Source: an uncultured bacterium
GTDB taxonomy: Bacteria > Patescibacteriota > Patescibacteriia > CAIQCM01
Reading direction: 5' to 3'
Assembly: GCA_963708045.1 (NCBI GenBank)
Contig: OY970181.1
Coordinates: 195,740-259,739, forward strand
DNA length: 64,000 bases
The position numbers were made by a program, and so were the translations under genes. Below, in pieces: positions 8,301 through 53,366 of the stretch (positions are counted from its first letter, which is position 1; each line of letters opens with the position of its first letter). The notes under the pieces are model-generated. The model made no database searches. It was given only the letters and a program-made list of their open reading frames with translations, and was not told where the DNA came from.

Positions 8301-9169
8301 TATTTTATATAGAAAACCGGAGGTTATTTTCAAAGTGCGTTCACCTTGATAACCTCCGGTCCGAGCTCTTGCCCGAAATGGCTTTGGCTAGCTCGTGGAC
8401 GTGGAGCGATGACTTGCGCTGGTGGTGGTCGTGTTCGTCGTCATTGTGGAACCGCGTATGTGGCCGTGTCTCATGATTGGTCTCCTTCGGACAAATCGTT
8501 ACCTACAACTCTGTGCAGATCGTTTGTCCAAAATCAATATAACAAATAATGCTTTGGAGCGAAATAGCATCTATCCACAATTTAAAAACCGGAGCGGATC
8601 ATAGTGGCGTAGCCCACGTTTGATCCGTCCGGCTTTCTCTGACCGTCCGTTTAGACAGTCTGTTGTTTGTTTCGCTTAACTACCGCGAAAGCGCGCTTTC
8701 TGCACGGACTCGTCCGTGCTCGCTGGACACACCGTTCAGCTCCTGTTGCGGCTTGGGGTGATGCGTGCTTCGCTGGCGTCAATGAGCGTGACACACACTG
8801 CGAATACGCGTTGACAGATTTGGCCGTCGTGGTCAATCGTCATACTCGTCGGTCGTCCTCGGGACTTCGTCATCGGTATCCTCCTTGGGTTATGCTTTAG
8901 CACAAACGGCCACAGCTGCACCGTTCGTACTTGGCAATACAAATATACCAAAAATACTTTTCTTGGCAAGTCCGCACAACACAACCCAAAGCAGTCCACG
9001 ATCAACAAATTTTCTTAACAACTATTTCTTCCTACTTTTACCGATCGGTAAAAGTAGGAAGAAATAGGACAAGTTTGGTCGAGGCGAAACCTCAACCAAA
9101 ACAACCCCAAAGCATCTCAACAAGTTTTTTAGTATTTGATATATTCATAACTCGGCAAGCGCCGCGTTT

Positions 9170-9219
9170 GGGCCCATAGTAAAGTGGCATTACGGTCCGA
9201 TGGACATCGGACAGGTTCG
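9170..9219 (+). pseudogene. tRNA-like 5' fragment (acceptor 5' strand + D-arm + 18-nt palindrome replacing the anticodon arm + aggttcg)
   Basis: gggcccatagtaaagtggcattacg is identical to positions 1-25 of the downstream tRNA-Ala. It is followed by gtccgatggacatcggac and aggttcg. The GIY-YIG GTG start overlaps its last 1 nt (9219). Confidence 0.6.
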
Positions 9220-9494
9220 TGAAAAATATGAGATGCTTTGTGTATATTACAGTTTGTTCTAATGGCCAATACTATATCGGAAGCAGTATTGACGTGGCGA
9301 GAAGAATTGACGAGCACAACGCTGGCAAAACAAAATCGCTAGCCAATGTCTTACCAGTAAAACTTGTCTTTAAACAAGCGTTTGAAGATGAATTGACGGC
9401 GAGACGAGTTGAGTATCGGCTTAAACAAAAAAAGAGTAGAATCATCATTGAGAAAATAGTCCAAGAAGGACAGATCAAGTTCTTGGGCCCATAG
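9219..9494 (+). CDS. small GIY-YIG nuclease-domain protein (UPF0213/YhbQ-like)
   Basis: MKNMRCFVYITVCSNGQYYIGSSIDVARRIDEHN...KLVFKQAFEDELTARRVEYRLKQ. GTG start. The TAG stop lies at tRNA-Ala positions 8-10. Confidence 0.7.
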   Translation: MKNMRCFVYITVCSNGQYYIGSSIDVARRIDEHNAGKTKSLANVLPVKLVFKQAFEDELTARRVEYRLKQKKSRIIIEKIVQEGQIKFLGP

Positions 9495-9555
9495 TAAAGT
9501 GGCATTACGCTTCCATGGCATGGAAGAGGTTCGGGTTCGATTCCCGATGGGTCCA
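9485..9555 (+). tRNA. tRNA-Ala(GGC)
   Basis: Hand-folded cloverleaf. Acceptor gggccca/tgggtcc with a G3:U70 pair and A73. D-stem gtaa/ttac. Anticodon stem cttcc/ggaag with loop atGGCat. T-arm tcggg-ttcgatt-cccga. No encoded CCA. Confidence 0.7.
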
Positions 9556-10724
9556 TAAAAAATATCCTCCAATCAAGAGGATGTTTTTTATTTGGCATTA
9601 CGGTCCGATGTCCATCGGACAGGTTCGGGTTCAATTCCCGATGGGTCCATAAAAAATATCCTCCAATCAAGAGGATGTTTTTTATTTGGCATTACGGTCC
9701 GATGTCCATCGGACAGGTTCGGGTTCGATTCCCGATGGGTCCATAAAAAATATCCTCCAATCAAGAGGATGTTTTTTATTTGGCATTACGGTCCGATGTC
9801 CATCGGACAGGTTCGGGTTCGATTCCCGATGGGTCCATAAAAAATATCCTCCAATCAAGAGGATGTTTTTTATTTGGCATTACGGTCCGATGTCCATCGG
9901 ACAGGTTCGGGTTCGATTCCCGATGGGTCCATAAAAAATATCCTCCAATCAAGAGGATGTTTTTTATTTGGCATTACGGTCCGATGTCCATCGGACAGGT
10001 TCGGGTTCGATTCCCGATGGGTCCATAAAAAATATCCTCCAATCAAGAGGATGTTTTTTATTTGGCATTACGGTCCGATGTCCATCGGACAGGTTCGGGT
10101 TCGAATTCCCGATGGGTCCATAAAAAATATCCTCCAATCAAGAGGATGTTTTTTATTTGGCATTACGGTCCGATGTCCATCGGACAGGTTCGGGTTCGAT
10201 TCCCGATGGGTCCATAAAAAATATCCTCCAATCAAGAGGATGTTTTTTATTTGGCATTACGGTCCGATGGACATCGGACAGGTTCGGGTTCGATTCCCGA
10301 TGGGTCCATAAAAAATATCCTCCAATCAAGAGGATGTTTTTTATTTGGCATTACGGTCCGATGTCCATCGGACAGGTTCGGGTTCGATTCCCGATGGGTC
10401 CATAAAAAATATCCTCCAATCAAGAGGATGTTTTTTATTTGGCATTACGGTCCGATGTCCATCGGACAGGTTCGGGTTCGATTCCCGATGGGTCCATAAA
10501 AAATATCCTCCAATCAAGAGGATGTTTTTTATTTGGCATTACGGTCCGATGGACATCGGACAGGTTCGGGTTCGATTCCCGATGGGTCCATAAAAAATAT
10601 CCTCCAATCAAGAGGATGTTTTTTATTTGGCATTACGGTCCGATGTCCATCGGACAGGTTCGGGTTCGATTCCCGATGGGTCCACCAAAAAATCATACCT
10701 ATTTGGGTATGATTTTTTGTTTTA
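9556..10724 (+). repeat. tandem array: terminator + 12 head-to-tail 94-bp copies of [tRNA 3' part (D-loop 3' half, 18-nt palindromic arm, T-arm, acceptor 3' strand) + intrinsic terminator]; last copy ends gggtccaCCA with a distinct terminator
   Basis: ggcattacggtccgatgKccatcggac starts at 9594, 9688, 9782, 9876, 9970, 10064, 10159, 10253, 10347, 10441, 10535 and 10629. Each unit ends in atcctccaatcaagaggat + T-run. Copies are near-identical. Variants: loop tgtcca vs tggaca (copies 8 and 11), ttcaattcc (copy 1), ttcgaattcc (copy 6). Confidence 0.9.
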
Positions 10725-10803
10725 TCCGGTTGGTAAATTTAAAACCCGCGTCATAACTTTTGGAAATGACGCGGGGCGGGACAAATCTTTGTCGCGCCAA
10801 TTT

Positions 10804-11223
10804 TTAGATTGGCGCTTTTTGCTGCGTTAGAAGGTGCTCGTACATCATTTCCCATTCCCACACGCCGGATCTGCGGGTCCACGTCTCCCTATCAAACTCA
10901 ATTACCGTTACCCGGTCGGTGGCGTTAGCGTCCGAAAGTGGGTGTTGCCTGATCATATCTCTACTGGAGAGAACGATGACCAGGTTGGTGCCGCTATGAG
11001 CCGCCGCGGTTGCAATCCTTATGAGCTCAGAAACGATCGTGTGATTATCGGGTCGCCTGATAATGAAAATGTTGAACGGGTCACCGTTCTCGTGACTGCT
11101 TTTCAGAGCATCACCGGCCGCAATCGTGCCATCGGCAAACTCGGATTTCCAACCTGCCGGCATTGAGTGCATCAGCGCATTGGTCTCAGGTCTATCAACA
11201 CAAAGCGTCAGTAATACTCTCAT
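10804..11223 (-). CDS. hypothetical protein (139 aa, Rossmann-like alternation, no family recognised)
   Basis: Intact ORF, GC-richer than core genes. Lies immediately beside the tRNA-derived array. Confidence 0.4.
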   Translation of the reverse strand: MRVLLTLCVDRPETNALMHSMPAGWKSEFADGTIAAGDALKSSHENGDPFNIFIIRRPDNHTIVSELIRIATAAAHSGTNLVIVLSSRDMIRQHPLSDANATDRVTVIEFDRETWTRRSGVWEWEMMYEHLLTQQKAPI

Positions 11224-16794: not shown

Positions 16795-19700
16795 TTATTC
16801 CTGCGACACGGGAATTGTTTCTGTCGGTGTTGGTTCAGCTTGAGGCGCCGGACTAATTTCGGCGGACGGTTCGGAAACTGTGGGCTCGGGCATTGGTTCG
16901 TCCGTCGGCGGCGCGCTTTCGGCCGCGGGTTCATTTATGGTATCGGGGTCGGTTGCTGGTTCATTCACCACGGGTTCTTCGGTTGACGGCGTTGTTGTAA
17001 CGGGTTCAACGGGTGGCGTTGGCGTATTTGTAACAGGTTCGTTAACGACCGGAACGGGAGCGGGCGGAGCGGACGGCGCGTTCACGTTTTGTTGACTATT
17101 AAGCAATTGGTCTAGTTGATCTTTGGTAATGCACGTTTCGTTTCCGGTTTTAGCATCACCCACACAAAGTTTGCGCTGGTGCGTTTCATCAAAGTAGCCA
17201 CGGATCGCAGTTACCCGTGCGGCGACAAAGTCGGCAGCAATCTTAGCACCGGCGTTTATTCGGTCAATAAGAGCAGCGATCGGGTCGTGTGGTGTTTCGG
17301 CTTGAATGTCTAGAGCAAAAGATGTAATGCCGTTCGGCAAATCCTTGGAATCAATCAAGCGACCCATAACAAGTGACAGTGCCGGTTCGTCACCAGGATA
17401 ATAAGTATTTTTTATCAACATAATCGCTTCGCTCGCGTCATCGCCATTTGCAGACGAAAGAACCTGACCAATGACGAAACCAGGCGAAGTTGCTTTCATC
17501 GCAACTCCCGGCACCGACGACAAGGTCAAATAATCTCCAGCTCCAATTGCGCCGTTTTCGTCGGAGACCTTAACTGGAACACGACCAGCAAGAGCGAGGC
17601 GAACCGAATGACCATCGTCTTTACCAAGCGTGGTATGTGGGAGAGTAGAAACAACGCCAATTAATTTTTTATTATCTGTTCCCGACGAACGGACAACGGT
17701 TACGGGATTATTAGTGTCCAGACTGACCAACTCGCCGGCAACCGGTTCGTCGCCGGAATAAGGGATCCATTCCGCCAAGTCGGCCGAGTCGGCCGTTCCC
17801 GGCGTGCCGACGACGCGCCAAGCGCCGTTTGCGCGGACAATGGTGTAGTTTTCAATGATTACCACCGAGTTGGTATTGGCGGCACCGGCAGTAACCGTAC
17901 TAACCTGCGTACCGTTTACCTGAACAATGATCGTCGCGTTTTCATTGGCGCCACCACCAACGCCAATGCGTTGAACCTGAGTTTCAATGAAAGCAAACGT
18001 ACCGTCGGTGTTTGGTAATCCAGTAATATTAAAGGTGGTGGTTGGCGCCGCGCCTTGCGTGCCATTTCCTGTTGAACAAGTAGTTGTCACATTGCAAAGG
18101 CTCAAAAAATAAACAAGCGCTTTGGTTGAGACCGTTACCGTGTCGTTGGCTGTGGTTAGGTGGACGTTGTTCAAGCTGTTGCCGCCCCAGTTGCCGGCGA
18201 CATCAATAGTGCGGCCAGTCGTAGCGCTCGGGGTCACGCCGATTGTTAAACCTTGATCCCATCCGGCACCAATGTTGATCGCCGTTTCTGTTCCGGCGCC
18301 GCCGGTGATATTAGAGATACCCAAACCGTTCAATGATCCGGCGCCGATGCCCGCGGCGGCAATCTCAACGCCGTTTGCTGTTCCGTTGGTCGTGATCGTA
18401 CCAGTGTTTACCATGACGCCACTTGCCGTGACTGCGCCGCCGGCGGATTGCGTGATTCCCGGCAGGGTGACATTGACGCCGTGCCAGAGGAATGATCCAG
18501 CTGTCCCGTTCGTGATCGCGCCAGCCGTTGTCAAATTGTAGCCGTTATAAATGGTTGCGTTAGAAGTTGTTGAGGCGGTCGGCAGTTTCAAATCAAAACC
18601 GGTGATATTTTGTCCGGCGGATGGCGCGGTCAAGTTGGCGTTCATATCAAAAGCAAGCCCGATCAAAGCGCCTGCGCCTTGATTCGTCGCTGCGCCGTAA
18701 GCGCCGTTCATGATCGTGCCGGTGGTGTTGGTAAAATTAATGTCCACGATTTTTCCGGAAGTCGAAGTTGAGTTAAGCCGCAACAAAGTTCCGGAGGTAA
18801 GCGAGGTATCGTTAAAGACAAAGGACGAAGCCGTCGTCACACCGGTCGCATTTGACGAAGTAAAAGTTTGTGCGCCCGTGCCGGAAGTAAAGCCGATAGA
18901 GGCTAAGGAAGAGTTACCGATTATGACCGTGCCGGTTGAGGTGCCAGCGTTAATTGAGGTGTTAAAGTTGGAGTTATCATTCAAACTCACCGCCGCACCG
19001 GAAACGGTGAGGCCGAGATTACCAGTAAGCAAACCCGCTGAGGTGATTGTACCGCTTCCCGTTGTTGAAATGTTGTTTGACGTTGAAATCGTGTTCGCGG
19101 TCGCAATCGTGCCAAAGCCGGAGGCGATGGATCCAGAAGTAAGAATGCCAACCGTTGTTAAAGAAGAAGTGACCACGCCCGAAGCCAGTGTCGTGCCGGA
19201 AATATCAGCGGCCGCGTTCACGGTGATGGTTGCGTTCGGGAAAGTAATTGTTTTAGAAGTAACCGTCGGATCGGTAATCGCAAAAATTGTTTTCACGGCA
19301 TCGGCGGTCGCACCGTCAAAGGAAAGTGGCGAGGCGCCGGTCACGTTGCCCGAAGAAAGCGTAATGTTTCCGTTCGCGGTAAGGGTTTGAGTGACGGTAA
19401 GCGCGCCATTATTCGTTGTCGTAATCCCCGTCTTGCCCAAGGAAACCGAGGTTGCGCCGGACGTGCCAAGGTTGAGGGCGGAGGCGGAATCAACCGTAAG
19501 CGCGCCCACCAAAGTACTCCAAGTGGAAGCAGCGCCAGCTGTGAGTGTTAAGGCGCCGGACGAAGTTGACCAAGTTGAAGCCGCACCAGCTGTGAGTGTA
19601 AGTGCGCCACCAGAAGTAAACTGTGACGCACTGGTCGGCGTAAGATTAACAGCACCAGCGCCGGTCGCATTAAAATTTCCCGAGGTTAAGGTGTAGGCGA

Positions 19701-22700
19701 TATTCGCGCCCGAGGTCGTGATTGTCGCTCCGTTATCATAAGCTTCTTGAAGCGTTGTCGCGCCCGCGGTATCGCAATCTTTCCAAGCAATATTTTCAAA
19801 ACAACGGAATTTATTCGCGTTAGCGTTATAGTACATCGCGCCAACTGATCCCGTGGGGTCGCCGGCGCTAGATTTTATGTCGGTAACCAAAAGGTCAGGT
19901 GTGGTCACGCCGGCACCAGAACCGATTTGAACATTTGCAGTCTGCCCCGCGCCCGCAACTTGCAGTGAAAGATTTCCCGCGCTCGTGCCCCAGGTAGCGG
20001 CGGCGGCAGAAGTAAGCGTTAAGGCACCGGATGATGATTGCCAAGTTGCCGCGCCGGCCGAAGTAATATTCATTGAGCCCGCAGCAGTCAAAATTGTTGA
20101 TGTACCAAGTGAAACCGTGCCCGAACCAGCTTGGAGCGTTAAATTTCCGGCTGAAGTTGACCAGGTTGAAGCCACGCCAGCGGTAACGGTAATGGCCGCG
20201 CCCGAGACAACACCAATCGCGCCAGCCGCCCCACTCCCAATTGTCACCGTTCCCGTGGACGTTCCATTATTAATATTTGTATTAAAATTTGACGAAGAGT
20301 TTAAATTAACCGCCGCGCCCGTAACATTCAAACCAAGCGAGCCAGTAAGCAGTTGACTCGCGGTTAAGGCGCCGTTTATTGTTGTGGTTATTCCGCTTCG
20401 CGAAATGGAAATTGCCGAGGCATTCGTCGTGCCAACGTTCACCGTTCCCGCCGTACCCGTCGCCGTTCCCGCGTCAATCGTGACGTTACCAGAATTTGAT
20501 GTTGCCCCACCAGCATTTCCCGTAACAAGCGACACGGCGGCGGAATTGGTAGAGCCGGCGGTTTGATTTAAAGTTTTTAATGTAAGGGTGCCGGTGCTTC
20601 CCGAAGAAATCGTTGTCGTTTGGGCAAAAGTTAGGTTGCCCAGATTATCAATCCGCGCGCGTTCAACCGGCGAACCGACATTAAGCGTTTCAAAACGGAT
20701 CGCGCCGGTTTCGGCGCCTGGCGTCACGTTGGTAAGAATTCCAGAAAGCCGCGCGGCCGGGACTTCGGTGCCAATATTATTTTGCGCGCGCAAAAGCATT
20801 CCCACGCCAAGACCGGCAGCCGGCGTGCCCGAGGTTGCATGTTCCAAAACAAGAACGTCGGAAATGTCGTTATTGATCGCGTCTTCTTGTTCCACATAAA
20901 GCTTAGTACCAGTATGCGGCGTACTAGTTCCAAGGCTAAGCTGTTTACTCGCGTTGTCCCAGTAAAATTCATTATCGCCCGTTTGCGTATTTGATCCGTT
21001 CCAAAAAGAAACTTGTCCGGACGTACCTGTACCCGACACACTCGCGCCGCCAGCGCAGTCAATCCAAGCATTATCAATGTAGCAGCGAAAAGTTTTAGTA
21101 ACCGTATTATAATAGGTGGCGCCGTTGGTTGACGGCGGGGTGGCGGGGTCGGAGGCTTTGTTTGAAAAAATTAAAAGCGACGAGTTGGCAATTTTAATAT
21201 TTCTTGTCGCCGAAAGATTAAGGTCGGTTGTTGCGTCAGAGTTTGTAATTGTGTTTGTTCCAGCAGCAAACGTAAGCGTGCCTGATGAAGAAGAAAGTGA
21301 AAGCGCCGCGCCGCCGCCAGACGAAACCGCGAGTGCCCCAGTACTTGCAAGCGAACTACCCGAGAGTGTTGTCGCGCCAGTAACTAGACTTGTGCCAAAA
21401 TAACCCGTGCGCCAGCGATTTCCACTCGCGCCAACATCCAAAGCATTATCGGTTGTACCAGGTTGAAGCGTGCCCACTTCGGTGATGCGCAATTGTTCGG
21501 TCAGAACGCCGCCGCCCACGCGCGTAAAGAAACCAAGCATTGAATCTTCGGTGCCATTTGCGGTGTTGGTTAAGACTGCAGAAATACCACCGCTATCGGC
21601 GAGCGCGCCAGCATCATTTTCATTTCTAAATAAAAGATTTGAACCAATACCGTTTCCGGCCACGGCGGTCGTGGTGTGATCAAGCACAAGAACGGTTGAT
21701 GAATTATTATTAACCGCGTCATCCAACGAAATATCGGCCTTGGTTCCGGCGGGCGGTGCAGTGGCGCCAATTTGCAACTGATCGGCGAAATTTTTCATTT
21801 GATTAATGAGCCCGACTTCGGTCCACGTTCCCAAACAATCTTGCCAAACACCGGCTTTATAGCAACGGAATTTATCATCAGCAGAATTGTAATACATCGC
21901 GCCGTTAACACCACTTGGATCGCCGGAAGTTGATTTGGCGTCCATAACCAATAGATCAGGCGTTGCCGATGGCGCACCCGTTCCAATCTGGATATTTCCC
22001 GTTCCGGAACCGGCAGCAATGAACGAAAGGTTACCTGCCAAAGTTCCCCAAGTGGCGGCCGAAGCCGAAGTTAACGTAAGCGCGCCGGCGGAAGTTGACC
22101 AGGTAGAAGTTGCACCGGCGGTGAATGTCAGCGCACCGGCGGAAGTGAATTGCGACGCGGCGGTTGGCGTAAGGTTAACAGCGCCCGTGCCGGTCGCGTT
22201 AAAGTCGCCCGAAGTTAAGGTGAAAAGAATCGGCGTTGATGACGAGGTTGTTACCGAAGCGCCAGCGTTATAAGCCGTCTGAAGCGTTGTCGTGCCGCCC
22301 GTCGTATCACAGTCTTTCCACCCTCCACCTTCGTAACAGCGAAATTTTGCGGCTATGGAATTGTAATACATGGCGCCGTTCGCGCCCCCCGCAGGATCGC
22401 CAGCGTTTGATTTCAAATCAACAACCAATAAATCAGGCGTTGTTGATCCTCCGGCGCCGATTTGAACATCGGCCGTCACTCCAGTTCCAGCCGCCTGCAA
22501 AGAAAGATTTCCAGCCGACGTTCCCCAAGTTGAAGCCGCGCCGGCGGTAAAAGTGAGCGCACCGGCCGAAGTAAATTGCGAGGCGGCTGTCGGCGTAAGG
22601 TTAACCGCGCCGGTGCCAGTGGCGTTAAAGTCGCCCGAAGTTAAGGTGAAAAGAATCGGCGTTGATGAACCGGTAATAATCGCGTTTCCATTATTATATG

Positions 22701-25700
22701 CCGTTTGTAAATTAACCGTGCCGCCTGTTGTGTCACAGTCGGACCACGAACCGTTTAAATAACAACGAAATTTATTTGTAGCTGAGCTGTAGTAAATAGC
22801 GCCATCCACGCCAGACGGATCAGCAAGCTGACTTCCCAAAACCAACAAATTTGAATCATCTATTTTTGTGTTAGCCGTTGCTTTCAAAATTATATCCGTC
22901 GTTGCGTTGGTGTTAGATATCGTATTAGTACCAGCGGCGAGTTTCAAAATTCCCGAACCCGAATCAAGCGAAAGGTCGCCACTCGTCGTTCCCCAAGTTG
23001 AGGCCGCGCCGGCGGTAAAGGTGAGTGCACCAGCCGAAGTAAATTGCGAGGCGGCGGTTGGCGTGAGATTAACAGCGCCGGTGCCGGTCGCATTAAAGTC
23101 GCCCGAGGTTAAAGTGAAAAGAATCGGCGTCGATGACGAGGTCGTAATTGAACTGCCGTTATCGTACGCACTTTGCAAAGTAGTCGCGCCTGAAGTATCG
23201 CAATCTTTCCAACTGATATTTTCATAGCAACGGAATTTATTAAGGTTAACATTATAGTACATTGCGCCAACCGATCCCGTTGGATCGCCGGCATTTGATT
23301 TTAAATCAACAACCAAAAGATCGGGCGTGACTGATCCAGCGCCAGAACCGATTTGAATATTCGCAGTTGTCCCGCTTCCGGCTGGCTGAAAAACTAGATT
23401 ACCCGTTGCCGTGGCAAGCGAACCATCAGCCAGGGTCGTGTTTGCGTTCACAATCGCGCTTGTGCCAAGATATGCTGTACGCCAAACATTTCCCGTTGCG
23501 CCGATGTCTTCGGCGTTGCTGGTCAAAGCTGGCAACAAGCCAGCGGCTGTTATACGCAGGCGTTCGGTCGCGGCCCCGCCGCCGGTTCTAGTTTCAAAAC
23601 TTATTGCCGAGGCTTCAGCGCCCGAGGCCGCGTTGGTAAGAAGGGCATTAATGTGCCCGACGTTGGTTATGGAACCGGCGTCATTTTCGCTCCTAAAATT
23701 TATTCCCAATCCAATCCCCGCCGCCGCCGTTCCGCTAGTCGTATGATCAATCGTCACGACATTTGAAATATCGTTAGCCGTCGCGTCGTCGGAAACGATC
23801 TGTAGTTTGGTGTCTGCAACTGGCGACGCCGTACCAATACCAACCTGATCAGAAATAGTGGTAAGCCGCGTAACGCCGCTCGCGCTTATAAAAGCGCCAA
23901 CTGCGCAGCCGCCCCAGACTCCGTTTAAATAACAGCGCATTTGATTTGTCGCGGTGTTGTAGTACATCGCGCCGTTTGTCGCGGGCGGCGAAGCTGGGTC
24001 AGCTGCTTTTGATGACATCACAACAAGCGACGAATCGGCGATCTTCACGTTGCGCTGACTGCCGATAATAAGGTCGGTGCCAACGTCGGTGTTTGACAAA
24101 GAATTTGATCCGGCACCCAAAGAAACCGTACCCGAGCTGGAAGCAAGGCTTAGCCCACCAGTCGCATTGACCGTAAACGAACCAGTTGAAGTTACAGAGC
24201 TGCCGGCATAAGTTGCTGAACCGATTACGACGCTCGTTCCAAAATAACCCGTGCGCCAGCGATTTACCGCCGAACCAATATCCTGACCATTGTCGCTCGC
24301 GCCAGGAATAAGAAAACCCTGATCATCTATACGCAAGCGCTCGGTGAGCGGACCGCCAGCCGTGCGTGTTTGAAAAGTAAAAGCGCTATCTTGCGCGCCC
24401 GAAGTCACATCGGTAAGAATTGAAGTTATGCGACCGCTTAAACTTGGAGTACCAACACTGTTTTCCGCGAGAAAAACCAAACCGTTGCCAATTCCGTTTG
24501 CCGCCGCTCCTGTCGTTGAATGAACAAAAGCGCCAACGTCGGTATAAGTATTATTTGCCGTGTCGTTGACGGAAACAGAAAGCGGTGCCGTTGTCGTGTT
24601 TGTTCCAATGCCTAAATGTTTGGTCGTGTTATCCCAAAACAATCCGCTATCGCCGGTTTGCGAATTTGTCCCATTCCAAAAAGCAACCTGACCAGCAGAA
24701 CCAATACCGGTTACCGTGCCGCCCGTAATGCAATCCATCCACCCGCCACCAGCAAAACAGCGAAACTTATCCGTTGCTGTATCGTAATACATTGCGCCAT
24801 TAACGCCAGTTGGATCGGTTGCTTGTGAGCCCAAAATTAAAGTGTCAGCATCGGCAATTTTTATATCGCCCTCGGCATCAAGCACAAGATTAGTGCCGAG
24901 GTCGGTATTAATAATCGTATTTGTTCCCGCGCCCAAATGTAAAAATCCAGAACCAGCGGTCAAAGAAAGGTCGTTTGCGCCGCCCGAGGCAATTTCTAGC
25001 GCGCCTGTTGCATTAAGGTTGGTAGTGGTTCCCAAAGAAATAATTCCCGACCCGGCCTGCAGAGTTAAGTTGCCAGCGGTCGTGCTCCAAGTAGAAGCAC
25101 CCGCGCCAGTAATTGTTAGCGCGCCTGTACCCGAAGACAAGTTTACCGCGCCTGTGCCAGTGTATGATTGGCCAGGCGCCACGCTTACGCTTCCAGTACC
25201 GGAGAAAGAAATTAAATCAGCGCCGCCGAAAGTTTCAAACCGAACAAGCGGCGCGGTCTGTGTTGAAAATCCTGTTACGGTAAATTGCGTTTCGTCGGCT
25301 GTAGGTACGCCAGCCGTACTTAAATCAGAAAGATAGGCGACGGTACCGGATTCATTTTTAAAAGTAATTGTTCGCGACGAAGTTGGATCGGTAATTGCAA
25401 AAGTTGTTTTGTTGGCGTTTGCCGTTGCTCCGTCAAAAACAAGCGGCGAAGCGCCGAGAATATTTCCTGAAGAAAAGACAATTCCCCCGTTTGCCGTTAA
25501 CGTCGCCGCCGTTGTTAAATCACTTTGAACCGTAGTTGTGATGCCGGTTTTTCCAAGGGTAATCGCCATTGCATTTAAAGTACCGAGGTTAAGGGTTGTT
25601 GCCGAATCCAACGTAAGTGCGCCGGCCGAAGTTGACCACACCGAAGCCGCGCCAGCCGTAAGCGTAAGGGCGCCGGACGAAGTAAATTGCGACGCGCTGG

Positions 25701-26664
25701 TCGGCGTTAAATTTATCGCTCCCGCGCCAGTCGCATTAAAATTTCCGTTTGCCAAATTAAATAAAATCGCATCTCCCCCACTCGTATTAATTGTTTGGCC
25801 ATTATTATAAACCGATTGCAGGGTTGAAGTACCGCCAGTTGTGTCACAGTCAGCCCACGAACCATTTACAAAACAACGAAATTTATTTGTTAGCGTATTG
25901 TAATATGTCTGACCATTAACACCCGACGGATCAGCGACAGCCGAGCCCAAAATTAAACCGCCGCCGATTGTCGTGAGCATTCCCGCGCTACCCAAATTTA
26001 CATTTTGCGTTAGCGTTAAATTTCCCGAGGCGTCGGTAACCGGCACAAACGCCGAGGCGCCGCCGACAGCCGACGTGCCAAATGAATTTAATTTCAAACT
26101 ATTTAACGATTGATATACCGCCGACATCCGCGTGCGCGGTGTCATTTCGGCATCGGTATTAATTTTTAAACCCAAGTAACGACTGTCGTCGGAAAATATC
26201 GCGTCTGGCAAATTATTTTGTCCGCCCGAAGTTGAGTCGCCTAAAAGTACAGAAAATAATCCATTAGTAACACCGACCGATACCGTCCCAAGCAACCCGC
26301 AATCAGTCGTATTTGCGTTTGCATCAGTATCAGCCGCTGACCAAACACAGGTGCCGCCCGAAGCAGAATCGTAAATAGCGATCTGCATATTGTAAGTTCC
26401 ATTTGCAACATTGCTTCCAGCTGTATCAGTCAACCGTCCTTGGTAATTTAAAAGTCTAACAACACCACTTGCACCAAAGGCCGGCTTAGCAATTCCAAAA
26501 AATAGTGAAGAAAAAATTAAAAACGACAAAACAAAACCAGACCAAGCCGCGCGGCGCGCACTTGGCAAAAAATGTTTCAATGTATTTTTAAAATTCATTG
26601 AATTTGTCTGTTTTTTTATAAACAACAGAACAAATAATTTCTCTGGTCGGTTTATAACAACCAA
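16795..26664 (-). CDS. giant secreted/surface repeat protein (3289 aa)
   Basis: Single uninterrupted ORF. N-terminal signal/TM. Very Gly/Thr/Ser/Ala/Asn-rich with many internal repeats (recurrent ...DPSGVNGAMYYN...KFRCY.NG.W.DCDT.GGT... modules). Globular C-terminal domain followed by a Pro/Thr/Glu-rich tail. Confidence 0.8.
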   Translation of the reverse strand: MVVINRPEKLFVLLFIKKQTNSMNFKNTLKHFLPSARRAAWSGFVLSFLIFSSLFFGIAKPAFGASGVVRLLNYQGRLTDTAGSNVANGTYNMQIAIYDSASGGTCVWSAADTDANANTTDCGLLGTVSVGVTNGLFSVLLGDSTSGGQNNLPDAIFSDDSRYLGLKINTDAEMTPRTRMSAVYQSLNSLKLNSFGTSAVGGASAFVPVTDASGNLTLTQNVNLGSAGMLTTIGGGLILGSAVADPSGVNGQTYYNTLTNKFRCFVNGSWADCDTTGGTSTLQSVYNNGQTINTSGGDAILFNLANGNFNATGAGAINLTPTSASQFTSSGALTLTAGAASVWSTSAGALTLDSATTLNLGTLNAMAITLGKTGITTTVQSDLTTAATLTANGGIVFSSGNILGASPLVFDGATANANKTTFAITDPTSSRTITFKNESGTVAYLSDLSTAGVPTADETQFTVTGFSTQTAPLVRFETFGGADLISFSGTGSVSVAPGQSYTGTGAVNLSSGTGALTITGAGASTWSTTAGNLTLQAGSGIISLGTTTNLNATGALEIASGGANDLSLTAGSGFLHLGAGTNTIINTDLGTNLVLDAEGDIKIADADTLILGSQATDPTGVNGAMYYDTATDKFRCFAGGGWMDCITGGTVTGIGSAGQVAFWNGTNSQTGDSGLFWDNTTKHLGIGTNTTTAPLSVSVNDTANNTYTDVGAFVHSTTGAAANGIGNGLVFLAENSVGTPSLSGRITSILTDVTSGAQDSAFTFQTRTAGGPLTERLRIDDQGFLIPGASDNGQDIGSAVNRWRTGYFGTSVVIGSATYAGSSVTSTGSFTVNATGGLSLASSSGTVSLGAGSNSLSNTDVGTDLIIGSQRNVKIADSSLVVMSSKAADPASPPATNGAMYYNTATNQMRCYLNGVWGGCAVGAFISASGVTRLTTISDQVGIGTASPVADTKLQIVSDDATANDISNVVTIDHTTSGTAAAGIGLGINFRSENDAGSITNVGHINALLTNAASGAEASAISFETRTGGGAATERLRITAAGLLPALTSNAEDIGATGNVWRTAYLGTSAIVNANTTLADGSLATATGNLVFQPAGSGTTANIQIGSGAGSVTPDLLVVDLKSNAGDPTGSVGAMYYNVNLNKFRCYENISWKDCDTSGATTLQSAYDNGSSITTSSSTPILFTLTSGDFNATGTGAVNLTPTAASQFTSAGALTFTAGAASTWGTTSGDLSLDSGSGILKLAAGTNTISNTNATTDIILKATANTKIDDSNLLVLGSQLADPSGVDGAIYYSSATNKFRCYLNGSWSDCDTTGGTVNLQTAYNNGNAIITGSSTPILFTLTSGDFNATGTGAVNLTPTAASQFTSAGALTFTAGAASTWGTSAGNLSLQAAGTGVTADVQIGAGGSTTPDLLVVDLKSNAGDPAGGANGAMYYNSIAAKFRCYEGGGWKDCDTTGGTTTLQTAYNAGASVTTSSSTPILFTLTSGDFNATGTGAVNLTPTAASQFTSAGALTFTAGATSTWSTSAGALTLTSASAATWGTLAGNLSFIAAGSGTGNIQIGTGAPSATPDLLVMDAKSTSGDPSGVNGAMYYNSADDKFRCYKAGVWQDCLGTWTEVGLINQMKNFADQLQIGATAPPAGTKADISLDDAVNNNSSTVLVLDHTTTAVAGNGIGSNLLFRNENDAGALADSGGISAVLTNTANGTEDSMLGFFTRVGGGVLTEQLRITEVGTLQPGTTDNALDVGASGNRWRTGYFGTSLVTGATTLSGSSLASTGALAVSSGGGAALSLSSSSGTLTFAAGTNTITNSDATTDLNLSATRNIKIANSSLLIFSNKASDPATPPSTNGATYYNTVTKTFRCYIDNAWIDCAGGASVSGTGTSGQVSFWNGSNTQTGDNEFYWDNASKQLSLGTSTPHTGTKLYVEQEDAINNDISDVLVLEHATSGTPAAGLGVGMLLRAQNNIGTEVPAARLSGILTNVTPGAETGAIRFETLNVGSPVERARIDNLGNLTFAQTTTISSGSTGTLTLKTLNQTAGSTNSAAVSLVTGNAGGATSNSGNVTIDAGTATGTAGTVNVGTTNASAISISRSGITTTINGALTASQLLTGSLGLNVTGAAVNLNSSSNFNTNINNGTSTGTVTIGSGAAGAIGVVSGAAITVTAGVASTWSTSAGNLTLQAGSGTVSLGTSTILTAAGSMNITSAGAATWQSSSGALTLTSAAAATWGTSAGNLSLQVAGAGQTANVQIGSGAGVTTPDLLVTDIKSSAGDPTGSVGAMYYNANANKFRCFENIAWKDCDTAGATTLQEAYDNGATITTSGANIAYTLTSGNFNATGAGAVNLTPTSASQFTSGGALTLTAGAASTWSTSSGALTLTAGAASTWSTLVGALTVDSASALNLGTSGATSVSLGKTGITTTNNGALTVTQTLTANGNITLSSGNVTGASPLSFDGATADAVKTIFAITDPTVTSKTITFPNATITVNAAADISGTTLASGVVTSSLTTVGILTSGSIASGFGTIATANTISTSNNISTTGSGTITSAGLLTGNLGLTVSGAAVSLNDNSNFNTSINAGTSTGTVIIGNSSLASIGFTSGTGAQTFTSSNATGVTTASSFVFNDTSLTSGTLLRLNSTSTSGKIVDINFTNTTGTIMNGAYGAATNQGAGALIGLAFDMNANLTAPSAGQNITGFDLKLPTASTTSNATIYNGYNLTTAGAITNGTAGSFLWHGVNVTLPGITQSAGGAVTASGVMVNTGTITTNGTANGVEIAAAGIGAGSLNGLGISNITGGAGTETAINIGAGWDQGLTIGVTPSATTGRTIDVAGNWGGNSLNNVHLTTANDTVTVSTKALVYFLSLCNVTTTCSTGNGTQGAAPTTTFNITGLPNTDGTFAFIETQVQRIGVGGGANENATIIVQVNGTQVSTVTAGAANTNSVVIIENYTIVRANGAWRVVGTPGTADSADLAEWIPYSGDEPVAGELVSLDTNNPVTVVRSSGTDNKKLIGVVSTLPHTTLGKDDGHSVRLALAGRVPVKVSDENGAIGAGDYLTLSSVPGVAMKATSPGFVIGQVLSSANGDDASEAIMLIKNTYYPGDEPALSLVMGRLIDSKDLPNGITSFALDIQAETPHDPIAALIDRINAGAKIAADFVAARVTAIRGYFDETHQRKLCVGDAKTGNETCITKDQLDQLLNSQQNVNAPSAPPAPVPVVNEPVTNTPTPPVEPVTTTPSTEEPVVNEPATDPDTINEPAAESAPPTDEPMPEPTVSEPSAEISPAPQAEPTPTETIPVSQE

Positions 26665-28116: not shown

Positions 28117-28746
28117 ATGCCAAAATTAATACCAGAACAAAAAATCGCGCTTATAAAGGAACTCCGTAGAACCGGTCACAGTATTCCAGAAATAAGCACT
28201 GTGACCAGTTTACCAAAATCTTCTGTTTTTAGATATATCCAAGGCGTGGATATAGATAAAGACTTTCAAGGACGATTAAATGATCGGCGCCGCGCTTCTA
28301 CCGTTAGAAAAAACAGATTAGTCAACGAATCCAACCGCCACGCAAACGATCTAATAACGAGCATATCAAAAAATGAATTACTTCTTATAACAGCTTCGTT
28401 GTATTGGGCTGAGGGAGCAAAAAAAGATTTTTCTTTTGCAAACACCGACCCAGAAATGGTTAGGTTGTTTATCAATTCGTTACGAAGAAACTTTAATGTC
28501 AAAGATGACGAATTAACGATTAGTATTAGATTATACGAAGATTTAGATGAAAAAATAGCAATAATTTTTTGGTCTAAAATTGTCGGATTCCCTTTGGAGG
28601 GAAAGGTTCATATAAATTTATTAAAGGGAAAGAAGAACGGTAAATTACCTTATGGTATGTGCCGGGTTCGAGTTCGTAAAGCTTCCAAACTGCACAAATT
28701 GATATTTTCAATCATAAATCGTATGATTGATCTTACGCTCCCATAG
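28117..28746 (+). CDS. HTH + LAGLIDADG-like homing-endonuclease-family protein
   Basis: N-terminal resolvase-type HTH (LRRTGHSIPEISTVTSLPKSSVFRY). The central ...LLLITASLYWAEGAKKDFSF... resembles the catalytic helix. The TAG stop lies at tRNA-Arg positions 8-10. Confidence 0.45.
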   Translation: MPKLIPEQKIALIKELRRTGHSIPEISTVTSLPKSSVFRYIQGVDIDKDFQGRLNDRRRASTVRKNRLVNESNRHANDLITSISKNELLLITASLYWAEGAKKDFSFANTDPEMVRLFINSLRRNFNVKDDELTISIRLYEDLDEKIAIIFWSKIVGFPLEGKVHINLLKGKKNGKLPYGMCRVRVRKASKLHKLIFSIINRMIDLTLP

Positions 28747-28808
28747 TTCAATGGATAGAACGAGAGACTCCTAAGCTCTAGATCCATGTTCGATTCATGG
28801 TGGGGGCA
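28737..28808 (+). tRNA. tRNA-Arg(CCT)
   Basis: Hand-folded. Acceptor gctccca/tgggggc (one G-U pair), A73. D-stem gttc/gaac with a GG loop. Anticodon loop ctCCTaa (one A-G mismatch at the base of the stem). T-arm ccatg-ttcgatt-catgg. No encoded CCA. Confidence 0.6.
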
Positions 28809-28821
28809 CTTAGAAAAAAAT

Positions 28822-39416: not shown

Positions 39417-40064
39417 GTGGGAATTAAATATAGTATCAACGAGACGTTTTTTACCAAATGGTCATCTAATATGGCTTATGTCTTGGGTTTCTTTTGTGCC
39501 GACGGCACAATGATTGATGACAAGATAAGCCGTGGCAAATACGTTCGTTTTATTAATACAGATAAAAATATTCTGATAAAAATTAAGGAGGCACTTAACT
39601 CCGAGCACAACATATATACAACCAAGGCTACAGCAAACCGTAAGGCTAAATACGTATTGAGTATTGGAAACAAAACTATTTATTCAAGTCTGATAGTTCT
39701 TGATTTAACGCCAAATAAATCATTGGACATTGCACCGCCGTCGGTTCCCAAACAATATATCAACGATTTTGTTCGTGGATACTGCGATGGCGATGGTTGT
39801 ATATATATTGAGAAACAGAGCAATACACTTAGGCTGATATTTACTTCTGGAAGCTCAGGTTTTCTTGTCGGTCTTGCGAAAATGATTACATTAATGAGCG
39901 GTGTTAGTATTAAAAATATATTAAACAGCCACCGAAGCTACCAATTGCGATACACACAAAACGACGCCATTACTATACTTCGTAGTATTTACAAAAATAC
40001 AAAATCTGGTCTATACTTGGAACGGAAAAGAAAAATATTCCAAAAATTTATTAAAAACAGATAA
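39417..40064 (+). CDS. double-motif LAGLIDADG homing endonuclease
   Basis: Two motifs, LGFFCADGT and RGYCDGDGC, about 100 aa apart. 215 aa. Ends 4 nt before tRNA-Cys. Confidence 0.7.
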   Translation: MGIKYSINETFFTKWSSNMAYVLGFFCADGTMIDDKISRGKYVRFINTDKNILIKIKEALNSEHNIYTTKATANRKAKYVLSIGNKTIYSSLIVLDLTPNKSLDIAPPSVPKQYINDFVRGYCDGDGCIYIEKQSNTLRLIFTSGSSGFLVGLAKMITLMSGVSIKNILNSHRSYQLRYTQNDAITILRSIYKNTKSGLYLERKRKIFQKFIKNR

Positions 40065-40068
40065 TTTC

Positions 40069-40142
40069 GGCCGCGTGGTGGAGTGGTTACACAAGGGTCT
40101 GCAAAACCCTGTACATCGGTTCAATTCCGATCGCGGCCTCCA
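40069..40142 (+). tRNA. tRNA-Cys(GCA)
   Basis: Acceptor ggccgcg/cgcggcc. U73 discriminator (a Cys identity element). Encoded CCA. Anticodon stem agggt/accct with loop ctGCAaa. T-arm atcgg-ttcaatt-ccgat. Short D-stem. Confidence 0.65.
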
Positions 40143-53146: not shown

Positions 53147-53366
53147 AATGAAACTAGAACCTGTTTAAGGTTTAGTCGTTAACTGTGTCCTTGTCAACTT
53201 ACCCCACCCTCCCATCTTTCCACGATCGTGGAAAGATGGGAGGGTAAGAGATAACACCGCATCACATTTAACCGCGATCGCGAATTAATGTGATGCGAAA
53301 AAAATTTTAAAAAAACAGCCCGCCCCGATGACCATCGGAGCGGGCTTGTGACGACATTCGGATCGT

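Follow-up and report, generated by a model that had tools for sequence, protein, structure and literature searches.

A minimal GIY-YIG gene and a conserved palindrome among partial tRNA copies in Patescibacteria: a candidate selfish homing-like cassette

Introduction

Judged by analogy, the closest experimental precedent for the mechanism that we propose in this study is the phage nuclease SegB. This GIY-YIG protein of T4/T6-like phages, whose gene is embedded among tRNA genes, is reported to cut inside tRNA genes, to leave mostly 2-nt 3' ends and to promote the inheritance of its own region (PMC2330249). SegB also drives a recombination-dependent and reversible segmental amplification of the tRNA locus; the laddered amplification of tRNA segments needs SegB together with the phage recombination genes uvsX and uvsY, and it collapses without selection (PMC13096335). 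Here, we analyze a stretch of 64,000 nt from an uncultured patescibacterium (contig OY970181.1, positions 195,740 to 259,739; hereafter the window), in which a GIY-YIG gene is likewise embedded at a tRNA gene. It lies between a truncated and an intact copy of tRNA-Ala(GGC), followed by a tandem array of tRNA 3' parts, and in the partial copies an 18-nt palindrome, which we call H, takes the place of the anticodon arm. The chances seem to us about even that this locus is a selfish homing-endonuclease-like cassette residing at Patescibacteria tRNA genes, with repeats gained, lost and amplified by recombination and with H as its conserved cis site. It differs from SegB loci in that SegB is a phage-borne protein of ~220 aa with a DNA-binding part, whereas the window protein is a bare 88-aa domain encoded on a bacterial chromosome, and in that SegB loci show no invariant palindrome, anticodon-arm replacement or polar set of partial tRNAs.

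Several other described systems resemble the locus in part. The UPF0213/COG2827 proteins BH0048 (PDB 1zg2) and EF2693 (PDB 1ywl) share the size and domain content of the window protein, but their function is uncharacterized and their identity to it is low; the titles and abstract openings listed in a search for UPF0213/YhbQ/COG2827 revealed no reported link to tRNA genes or palindromes. REP and BIME sequences are likewise short conserved palindromes in hairpin-rich intergenic DNA that form tandem clusters and lie on both sides of the gene for the RAYT, a nuclease presumed to act on them; however, RAYTs are HUH tyrosine transposases, REPs do not lie in tRNA copies and their copy number per genome is far higher. 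Phages, integrative and conjugative elements and genomic islands that target tRNA genes also leave a partial tRNA duplicate beside an intact copy and restore the gene that they interrupt. In contrast to the window locus, they rely on recombinases of the tyrosine or serine type, their duplication is limited to the 3' part and the duplicates bracket kilobases of cargo.

Group I introns in Patescibacteria tRNA genes occupy the same host group and represent a selfish insertion at the anticodon region (PMC13011429). The survey describing them mentions neither GIY-YIG proteins nor palindromes (PMC13011429), and the window tRNA differs in being duplicated and uninterrupted, with no Rfam intron match up to E=1 in positions 8900-10900. 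Type III toxin-antitoxin systems (ToxIN) combine tandem short repeats and terminators with an adjacent nuclease gene. The ToxN/AbiQ toxins are endoRNases with transcribed arrays upstream, whereas the window array is downstream and promoterless and comprises 0 to 12 units among relatives. Searching the literature for GIY-YIG, tRNA, CPR/Patescibacteria, palindrome and pseudo-tRNA, as well as for the motif itself, we found no description of the element.

Results

A GIY-YIG gene nested at tRNA-Ala(GGC)

The locus spans positions 9170-10722 of the window and comprises, in order, a tRNA-Ala 5' fragment, H, the GIY-YIG gene, an intact tRNA-Ala(GGC) and 12 tandem units, all on the plus strand. The 5' fragment consists of tRNA nt 1-25, that is, the 5' strand of the acceptor and the D arm (9170-9194), and is identical at 25 of 25 positions to 9485-9509 in the intact gene. 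H, which we define as GTCCGATG-NN-CATCGGAC, follows at the anticodon-arm position as GTCCGATG-GA-CATCGGAC (9195-9212), an 18-mer that recurs in at least 170 public loci. A remnant of the variable loop and T stem, aggttcg (9213-9219, matching tRNA positions 9527-9533), marks the truncation point of the fragment. The stand-alone GIY-YIG gene (9228-9494) encodes 88 aa from the ATG at 9228, and its TAG stop codon (9492-9494) coincides with nt 8-10 of the intact tRNA-Ala(GGC). This tRNA (9485-9555) was called by ARAGORN and scores 61.6 bits in Rfam; it features G3:U70 and A73, its CCA is not encoded, and palindrome analysis identified its anticodon arm, CTTCCATG-G-CATGGAAG, as a perfect 8+1+8 palindrome. 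Directly downstream lies the first copy of terminator A (9556-9593), a bidirectional hairpin with an A-run and a T-run that was found by folding and by a terminator scan; a homologous terminator is located 3' of the tRNA in the related locus L185 (L-numbers denote the public loci that we collected).

A preliminary description of this region, made from the sequence alone, had already reported the tRNA-Ala identity of the first 25 nt, the palindrome in place of the anticodon arm, the reading frame ending at tRNA nt 8-10 and the complete tRNA with G3:U70 and A73, and the present analysis bears out each of these features. It had further placed the start of the gene at a GTG formed at the aggttcg junction. 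This GTG is indeed in frame (9219), but it is probably not the real start, because all close homologues are 88 aa long and begin at the ATG equivalent to 9228.

A weak promoter-like site (TCAACA-17-TATATT with an upstream TG; 9117-9145, plus strand), detected by consensus scan alone, is located ~25 nt 5' of the tRNA fragment. It is presumably the original tRNA promoter, which would now drive the fragment, the nuclease gene and the tRNA jointly. The last three sense codons and the stop of the nuclease gene lie inside the mature tRNA (9485-9494). One may thus speculate that RNase P cleavage at the tRNA 5' end would leave a non-stop mRNA and provide a built-in limit on nuclease expression.

A perfect 46-bp palindrome (9022-9067; 23+23 nt without spacer, centre ACCGA/TCGGT) is present ~100 nt 5' of the tRNA fragment and gave spurious microRNA and leader matches in Rfam.

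The tandem array

Tandem Repeats Finder describes the array (9527-10693) as 12.4 copies of a 94-nt period with 98% matches. Anchored on ggcattacg, a remnant of the D loop and D stem with which each unit starts, we count 12 H-bearing units 3' of the tRNA. The first eleven (9594-10628) measure 94 bp, one of them 95 bp, and consist of ggcattacg, H, the tRNA 3' half and terminator A; the twelfth copy of terminator A in the region belongs to the intact tRNA. The last H unit (10629-10687) ends in gggtcca-CCA and leads into terminator B (10686-10724), which folds into a 15-bp stem followed by a T-run and was also recovered by the terminator scan. Relative to the preliminary description of twelve 94-bp units with terminators, twelve is thus the total, terminal unit included, terminator A is confined to eleven of them and one unit is 95 bp long; the distinct terminal unit, unique in its gggtccaCCA end and its terminator, is as it had been described.

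As the same description had noted, the copies are almost identical and the palindrome occurs with its loop in both orientations. Single point differences set two units apart (g>a in the one at 9594, an additional a in the one at 10064). Across the locus, 10 copies of H have TC at the centre and three have GA (9195, 10262 and 10544); among the eleven terminator-A units, the counts are nine and two. The window thus holds 13 exact H copies, compared with 0.21 expected even when 3 mismatches are allowed.

The array units score only 19.3-19.4 bits on the Rfam tRNA model, against a gathering score of 29, and are accordingly fragments rather than tRNA genes; ARAGORN calls the intact tRNA only, and Rfam holds no family for the units. 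Our scan found no promoter-like site inside the array and every unit closes with a terminator, so the distal units should be silent. The suggestion that the array serves as a set of functional terminators or tRNA-like decoys is unlikely on these grounds and in view of relatives with 0-3 units. As had been predicted, joining the 5' fragment to a unit gives a tRNA-like cloverleaf, in which the anticodon arm is a 7-bp arm with a GNNC tetraloop or has an 8-nt loop. A split or permuted tRNA was rejected, as this product lacks a 7-nt anticodon loop and an intact tRNA-Ala(GGC) is present. A CRISPR array was likewise ruled out, since whole 94-bp units are 98-100% identical and variable spacers are absent.

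A single-domain nuclease under constraint

The window protein matches the GIY-YIG domain (Pfam PF01541) with E=3.1e-14 and 53.5 bits, well above the cut-off of 22.6, and retains Y6, Y16, G18, R26, H30 and E62, which are kept in at least 95% of 50 relatives. GIY-YIG is its only domain. The TIGR01453 model of group I intron endonucleases reaches just 27 bits (cut-off 56) over residues 4-38, matches to homing endonucleases in PHROG are weak, and the C-terminal DNA-binding domain that is joined by a linker in classical GIY-YIG homing endonucleases is absent. A phmmer search identified UPF0213 proteins as the nearest solved relatives (1zg2, E=8.2e-8; 1ywl, E=1.1e-5; residues 2-71), and the protein fits this type, single-domain proteins of ~90-110 aa, in its one domain and its similarity to BH0048 and EF2693. 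PADLOC gave no significant match to a defence system (a 13-bit hit with E=0.008 concerned an unrelated candidate), and a look-up of the exact protein sequence returned nothing on record.

Among L001-L003, the nuclease gene shows dN/dS values of 0.07-0.13 at dS of 1.2-1.5; between the window and its relatives, synonymous sites are saturated, with an identity of 0.47-0.50 at third codon positions. These values indicate that the gene evolves under purifying selection. Family-wide, the GIY proteins have a median amino-acid identity of 51%. In three metagenomic relatives whose nucleases are 70-78% identical to that of the window, the gene is nested at tRNA-Ala(GGC) in the same manner, and a second "5' fragment plus H" overlaps the ORF at its end.

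Distant stand-alone GIY-YIG paralogues, 30-41% identical to the H-associated proteins, occur in L008 (4700-5120), L014 (7290-7830 and 19-377), L050, L144 and L044. At tRNA-Phe (L008, 4758-4994) and tRNA-Ser (L014, 7454-7678), a partial 5' tRNA copy with other hairpins lies upstream of the paralogue. Here too, the gene lies between an intact tRNA and a partial copy bearing a hairpin, and the habit is therefore broader than the H-associated subfamily.

A family of H loci with fixed polarity

Using H followed by AGGT as a scan motif in a one-genome-per-species bacterial set and in metagenomes, we recovered 54 genome stretches and at least 120 metagenome stretches. Nearly all genome stretches are titled as Patescibacteria and include Uhr-, Shapiro-, Levy-, Davies-, Gottesman-, Ames-, Woese-, Harrison- and Kerfeldbacteria as well as Saccharibacteria. 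Some metagenome-assembled genomes bearing the element are titled as Gammaproteobacteria or Clostridia (L005, L017, L018, L020, L021, L026, L027, L032, L034, L036, L037, L047 and L053); either the family reaches past Patescibacteria or these records are mislabelled. The two H matches in viral contigs lie in high-GC coding DNA without a tRNA or GIY-YIG gene nearby and are for this reason attributed to chance. Compared with the preliminary description, this survey adds the widespread family, the invariant palindrome, the fixed 5'/3' polarity and the likeness of H to an Ala(GGC) arm with an extra base.

H always occupies the anticodon-arm position, between the D arm (...agagcg) and the variable loop (aggtc...), in many different tRNAs. 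Maps built with ARAGORN and a GIY-YIG profile revealed a common one-strand architecture: n copies of a 5' fragment with H, then the intact tRNA and usually the GIY-YIG gene in either order, and then m copies of H with a 3' fragment and, optionally, a terminator. Of 93 GIY-YIG ORFs, 78 lie within 60 nt of a same-strand tRNA. The main host tRNAs are Val(GAC), Ala(GGC), Val(TAC), Ala(TGC), Ile(GAT), Thr(GGT), Asp(GTC) and Arg(GCG), and those with GNC anticodons (Val GAC, Ala GGC, Asp GTC and Gly GCC) make up 96 of 181 host assignments. An ORF located 5' of the tRNA takes its TAG stop from U8-A9-G10, and the frame is shared by the Ala, Asp and Val examples; an ORF located 3' begins with an ATG directly adjoining the tRNA 3' end and terminates at the D-loop TAG of the next fragment. 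H is found 12-29 nt before the GIY start codon or 4 nt after the stop. These loci had been selected through H, and we therefore drew a second sample of 10 loci by protein similarity alone. All 10 contain a duplicated 5' fragment, a GIY ORF and an intact tRNA, with 13 exact and 4 variant copies of H.

The partial copies are polar. A full 5' half, with 90% identity or more to the adjacent tRNA, precedes 43 of 97 upstream H copies, and a full 3' half follows none of the 97. Downstream copies show the opposite pattern, with a full 3' half in 23 of 84 and a full 5' half in 1 of 84, and a complete H-bearing cloverleaf was found in just 4 of 192 distinct contexts. An H-bearing tRNA is thus almost never a gene; judged from these sequences, the locus resembles an H-tRNA into which an intact tRNA has been set or, put the other way, an intact tRNA between truncated duplicates, each with its broken side turned towards it. 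The fragment junctions fall at different positions in different loci, a pattern that speaks against a precise site-specific recombinase.

ARAGORN assigns the 4-base anticodons gtcc, gaac, gggc or taca to some of the H-bearing copies and to a few further loci, and leaves the type of these tRNAs undetermined (L020, L043, L064, L067, L073, L082, L088, L110 and L118), which constitutes an annotation trap. A quadruplet-decoding (frameshift-suppressor) tRNA was rejected as the general function, given the rarity of complete H-tRNAs.

Presence, absence and copy number of modules

Alignment of near-identical alleles revealed differences in entire modules. Where L003, L155 and L159 contain a 5' fragment with H, the GIY-YIG gene and another 5' fragment with H, L157 has a single 5' fragment with H; the difference amounts to exactly one module of 5' fragment, H and GIY gene, bounded by 52-bp direct repeats. 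The presence or absence of the gene is thus polymorphic at one locus between homologous flanks, a difference that may stem from gain or from loss. In addition, L155 carries a 112-bp module (tRNA 3' half, terminator, D remnant and H) that is absent from the other alleles aligned, and L177 contains two tandem modules of H and GIY that are 100% identical. By these alignments, whole modules bounded by tRNA-derived direct repeats occur in some near-identical alleles and are missing from others.

Relatives of the window locus vary in the same manner, in line with a comparison that the preliminary description had proposed. L187, whose protein is 80% identical to the window protein, has no downstream H unit, and its tRNA is followed by its own CCA and terminator. 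L185 (81% identity) has one downstream unit with CCA and a B-type terminator, and its tRNA lacks CCA and precedes a homologue of terminator A. The window has the layout of L185 with twelve units instead of one; elsewhere, arrays reach at most three units (2-3 units in 12 loci). As CCA and a terminator stand at the position of the twelfth unit in L187 and L003 (where they follow the intact tRNA) and in L185 (the single unit), this unit looks ancestral. It is probably the original tRNA 3' end in its chromosomal setting, with the 94-bp unit amplified between it and the working tRNA. The array of twelve would then represent a segmental amplification of the downstream module, rather than twelve insertions or functional genes.

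Sequence and origin of the palindrome

All H arms are identical in the window and its relatives despite the saturation of synonymous sites, and H is conserved far beyond neutral expectation. The central dinucleotide, in contrast, drifts: GA/TC was counted 82 times, GC 29 times, TA 27 times and AA/TT 29 times, others are rare, and AT, CG and AG/CT never occur. Fixed arms around a drifting 2-nt centre are the pattern expected of a symmetric protein-recognition site with an uncontacted centre, unlike most RNA hairpin motifs. The few variants of H include compensated ones that are still palindromic, such as GTCCGACG..CGTCGGAC and CTCCGATG..CATCGGAG, and variants of the wobble type and of the mismatch type are about equally frequent (5 loci vs 4), a ratio compatible with constraint at the RNA as well as at the DNA level. 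Inversion of the hairpin loop is a reasonable candidate for the mutational origin of the GA and TC centres. On inspection of the maps, we discerned no pattern relating the centre dinucleotide to the host anticodon, nor any complementarity between upstream and downstream centres.

A likely source of H emerged from the 270 distinct intact tRNAs of these loci. The anticodon loop ATGnCAT is present in 25 of 25 Ala(GGC) and in 0 of 245 other tRNAs, and all 25 distinct Ala(GGC) arms are perfect 8+1+8 DNA palindromes with the loop ATGGCAT, whose stems co-vary such that the palindrome is kept (for example, TCCCGATG-G-CATCGGGA in L059). H and its sister palindrome H2, CCCCGATG-NN-CATCGGGG, are best read as Ala(GGC)-type anticodon arms with one extra central base in the anticodon. 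The confinement of the ATGnCAT loop to Ala(GGC) among the tRNAs compared suggests that H derives from this arm, and its occurrence in Val, Ile, Asp, Thr and Arg scaffolds implies that it moved between tRNA genes by ectopic transfer. The flanks match the local tRNA right to the edge of H, as gene conversion halted at heterology would produce.

H2 was found at 11 sites in 1.16 Mb, compared with ~0.07 expected, and the core shared by H and H2, CCGATG-NN-CATCGG, also occurs at T-loop positions of 3' fragments and in non-tRNA hairpins. Palindromes of the form CCCCGATG-NN-CATCGGGG and close variants replace or enter the T arm of H-bearing 3' fragments in L057/L135/L173, L039, L050 and L185 (538-555), and in L179 palindromes are inserted into the D loop of the 5' fragment; such palindromes seem to settle in the stem-loops of disabled tRNA copies. 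Within the window, the hairpin cagcccgCCCCGATGACCATCGGAGcgggctt (53316-53347) has the core embedded within a longer stem, with an A-run on one side and a T-run on the other. It is located between two minus-strand ORFs, has the look of an intrinsic terminator and is near-identical to the palindrome in the T loop of the L185 unit.

Discussion

A homing-like cassette at tRNA genes

The comparative data can be accommodated by the cassette outlined in the Introduction, and the idea of a homing-endonuclease-driven duplication comes closest to them among the three explanations offered in the preliminary description, on the basis of sequence comparison. The minimal 88-aa GIY-YIG gene lacks a promoter, terminator and stop codon of its own and would presumably be read from the tRNA promoter, while the retained intact copy of the host tRNA would keep the cell viable. 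Around it lie the partial tRNA copies, 5' fragments upstream and 3' fragments downstream, in which H replaces the anticodon arm. The nuclease might recognize H as a symmetric site, or else the hairpin or cruciform that H can form, and a dimer cutting on either side of the free 2-nt centre would generate the 2-nt 3' overhang typical of GIY-YIG enzymes. Recombination among the tRNA-derived repeats would then mend the breaks or nicks. With repair in register and a nuclease-bearing allele as template, the gene would be copied into H-bearing alleles lacking it, which amounts to homing; out-of-register repair would duplicate modules and build arrays.

Several observations weigh against this proposal. 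A bare catalytic domain of 88 aa contains no DNA-binding module, and recognition of a 16-bp site is hard to picture without oligomerization or a partner. H is intact directly beside the nuclease gene, whereas insertion destroys a classical homing site. H fragments lack a GIY gene within 700 nt in 32 of 75 well-flanked loci (43%). In a search for recent jumps, the most similar GIY pairs from different tRNA types proved to be 65-70% identical (best 70.6%) and thus document no recent jump. Broken or half copies of H, sought as footprints of a central cut, are rare, and the fragment junctions are variable. Moreover, a deletion instead of a gain could underlie the difference between L157 and L003, the apparent invariance of H is raised by its use in finding most of the loci, and both the activity of the nuclease and its specificity for H are predictions from sequence.

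Alternative readings

A minor but appreciable possibility is that the roles are reversed: the nuclease would cut the intact palindromic anticodon-arm DNA, that is, the 8+1+8 arm of Ala(GGC) and the near-palindromic arms of other GNC tRNAs, and H with its 2-nt centre would be a cleavage-resistant mimic. Survivors would need the intact copy restored, such that resistant partial copies pile up on both sides. The perfect palindromes of all 25 distinct Ala(GGC) arms, from which H differs by one extra central base, and the share of GNC-anticodon tRNAs among the hosts (96/181) fit this scenario, which would also account for the 5'/3' polarity, for the unharmed H beside the nuclease gene and for the presence of H in every partial copy while the copy between the arrays is intact. 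Yet resistance alone requires no conservation, and the H arms are identical across nucleases of ~50% identity with saturated synonymous sites; in addition, the hosts Val(TAC), Ala(TGC), Ile(GAT) and Arg(GCG) have non-palindromic arms, and the intact tRNA of the carrier would face permanent attack. Passive repeat instability, which we consider distinctly unlikely, would make H and H2 a REP-like family of palindromes that lodge in the hairpin loops of tRNA pseudo-copies with which the cell can dispense. Replication would stall at stable hairpins, both H and the terminators, and produce arrays by slippage, and the GIY-YIG gene would be a frequent neighbour or a host gene using tRNA promoters. The spread of the CCGATG-NN-CATCGG core to T-loop positions and non-tRNA hairpins (11 sites in 1.16 Mb vs ~0.07 expected), the 43% of well-flanked loci without a nearby GIY gene and the GA/TC flips, which fit template switching within a hairpin, agree with it. 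Slippage leaves the sequence-specific conservation of the H arms unexplained, however, and the tight spacing between H and the GIY gene, the 10 of 10 protein-sampled loci with a duplicated tRNA fragment (nearly all with H) and the analogous position of the distant paralogues speak against mere neighbourhood.

It is improbable, in our estimate, that the H-bearing tRNA pieces are functional RNAs, be it an antitoxin, a regulator, a processing signal, a nuclease decoy or a split tRNA-like molecule paired through H. The cloverleaf with its 7-bp arm that the 5' fragment could form with any unit, the variants of H that pair only via G-U wobble in the sense strand (L180, L086, L062 and L146), the resemblance of a repeat array beside a nuclease gene to ToxI/ToxN and the nuclease stop inside the tRNA, removable by RNase P processing and hinting at coupling at the RNA level, would suit such a role. 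They stand against an array that has no promoter-like site and ends every unit with a terminator, copies elsewhere that are mostly truncated at variable points (complete in 4/192 contexts), a conserved stem with a variable loop, which is the opposite of most RNA motifs, wobble variants that hardly outnumber mismatches, the lack of an Rfam family and of a significant PADLOC match, and unit numbers from 0 to 12 among close relatives. Guide RNAs of TnpB and IscB read out of the element into flanking DNA. By analogy, and as a very improbable variant, the 88-aa nuclease might bind the constant hairpin of H-bearing tRNA halves whose flanking tRNA sequence pairs with tRNA genes, so that tRNA-derived RNAs would guide it to the sites of homing, with the array as a locus of many guide copies. 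Integrative elements that target tRNA genes classically leave duplicated 3' parts of the gene on its downstream side, and the array resembles this footprint; the preliminary description had proposed an array of attB-like scars. This reading of the units as attB/attL/attR remnants of repeated integration and excision at the tRNA 3' half is effectively excluded: the neighbouring ORFs (YtxH, RCC1 and TPR matches or no Pfam match) include no recombinase, the 94-bp units hold no cargo, 5' fragments occur upstream as well, the anticodon arm contains a foreign palindrome, junctions vary by locus and viral contigs contain nothing comparable. Finally, assembly is unlikely to have falsified the number of units in the array or the order in which their variants follow one another. 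An array of 1.1 kb with 94-bp units at 98-100% identity lies beyond short-read resolution, 38 of 231 public H copies are located less than 120 nt from a locus end, which suggests that assemblies break here, and the closest homologues are on contigs of 693-902 bp. Four distinct internal unit variants and the terminal unit are nevertheless present, which rules out the full collapse considered earlier and leaves the number twelve exposed; both boundary junctions are present as well, arrays of 2-3 units were assembled independently in 12 other loci, and an artefact would touch the number alone, not the existence or nature of the locus.

Implications

We rate the element as a variant of the free-standing homing-type nucleases found at tRNA genes. 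Unusual features are the 88-aa size of the nuclease, the invariant palindrome derived from an anticodon arm, the preservation of the host tRNA by partial duplication and the nuclease-associated amplification on a bacterial chromosome. If the homing-like cassette proves to be the right reading, a widespread selfish element of Patescibacteria would have found a way to inhabit a tRNA gene that is essential and single-copy, namely by retaining one intact version next to disabled fragments of it. A GIY-YIG nuclease of the smallest kind would be paired with an invariant 18-bp palindrome, offering a candidate substrate for the uncharacterized UPF0213 family, and the nuclease-driven segmental amplification known from phage SegB would extend to bacterial chromosomes. 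In practical terms, H loci break short-read assemblies, yield spurious repeat ORFs and "4-base anticodon" calls and can mislead tRNA annotation in reduced genomes.

Other features of the window

A second gene of the homing-endonuclease type is located elsewhere in the window. This 215-aa double-LAGLIDADG ORF (39417-40064, plus strand; Pfam PF14528, E=1e-9; phrog_4645, E=6e-42) ends 4 nt before a tRNA-Cys(GCA) gene (40069-40142), with no partial tRNA copy visible upstream. A 209-aa ORF (28117-28746, plus strand), with a weak helix-turn-helix match alone, enters tRNA-Arg(CCT) (28737-28809), and its TAG stop is formed by nt 8-10 of that tRNA, as in the GIY-YIG ORF at tRNA-Ala. The following RmuC-family ORF, listed by the rule of the first start codon after a stop, begins at 28786 inside the tRNA-Arg 3' part; its real start may be further downstream. 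The window also contains a single ORF of 3289 aa on the minus strand (16795-26664).

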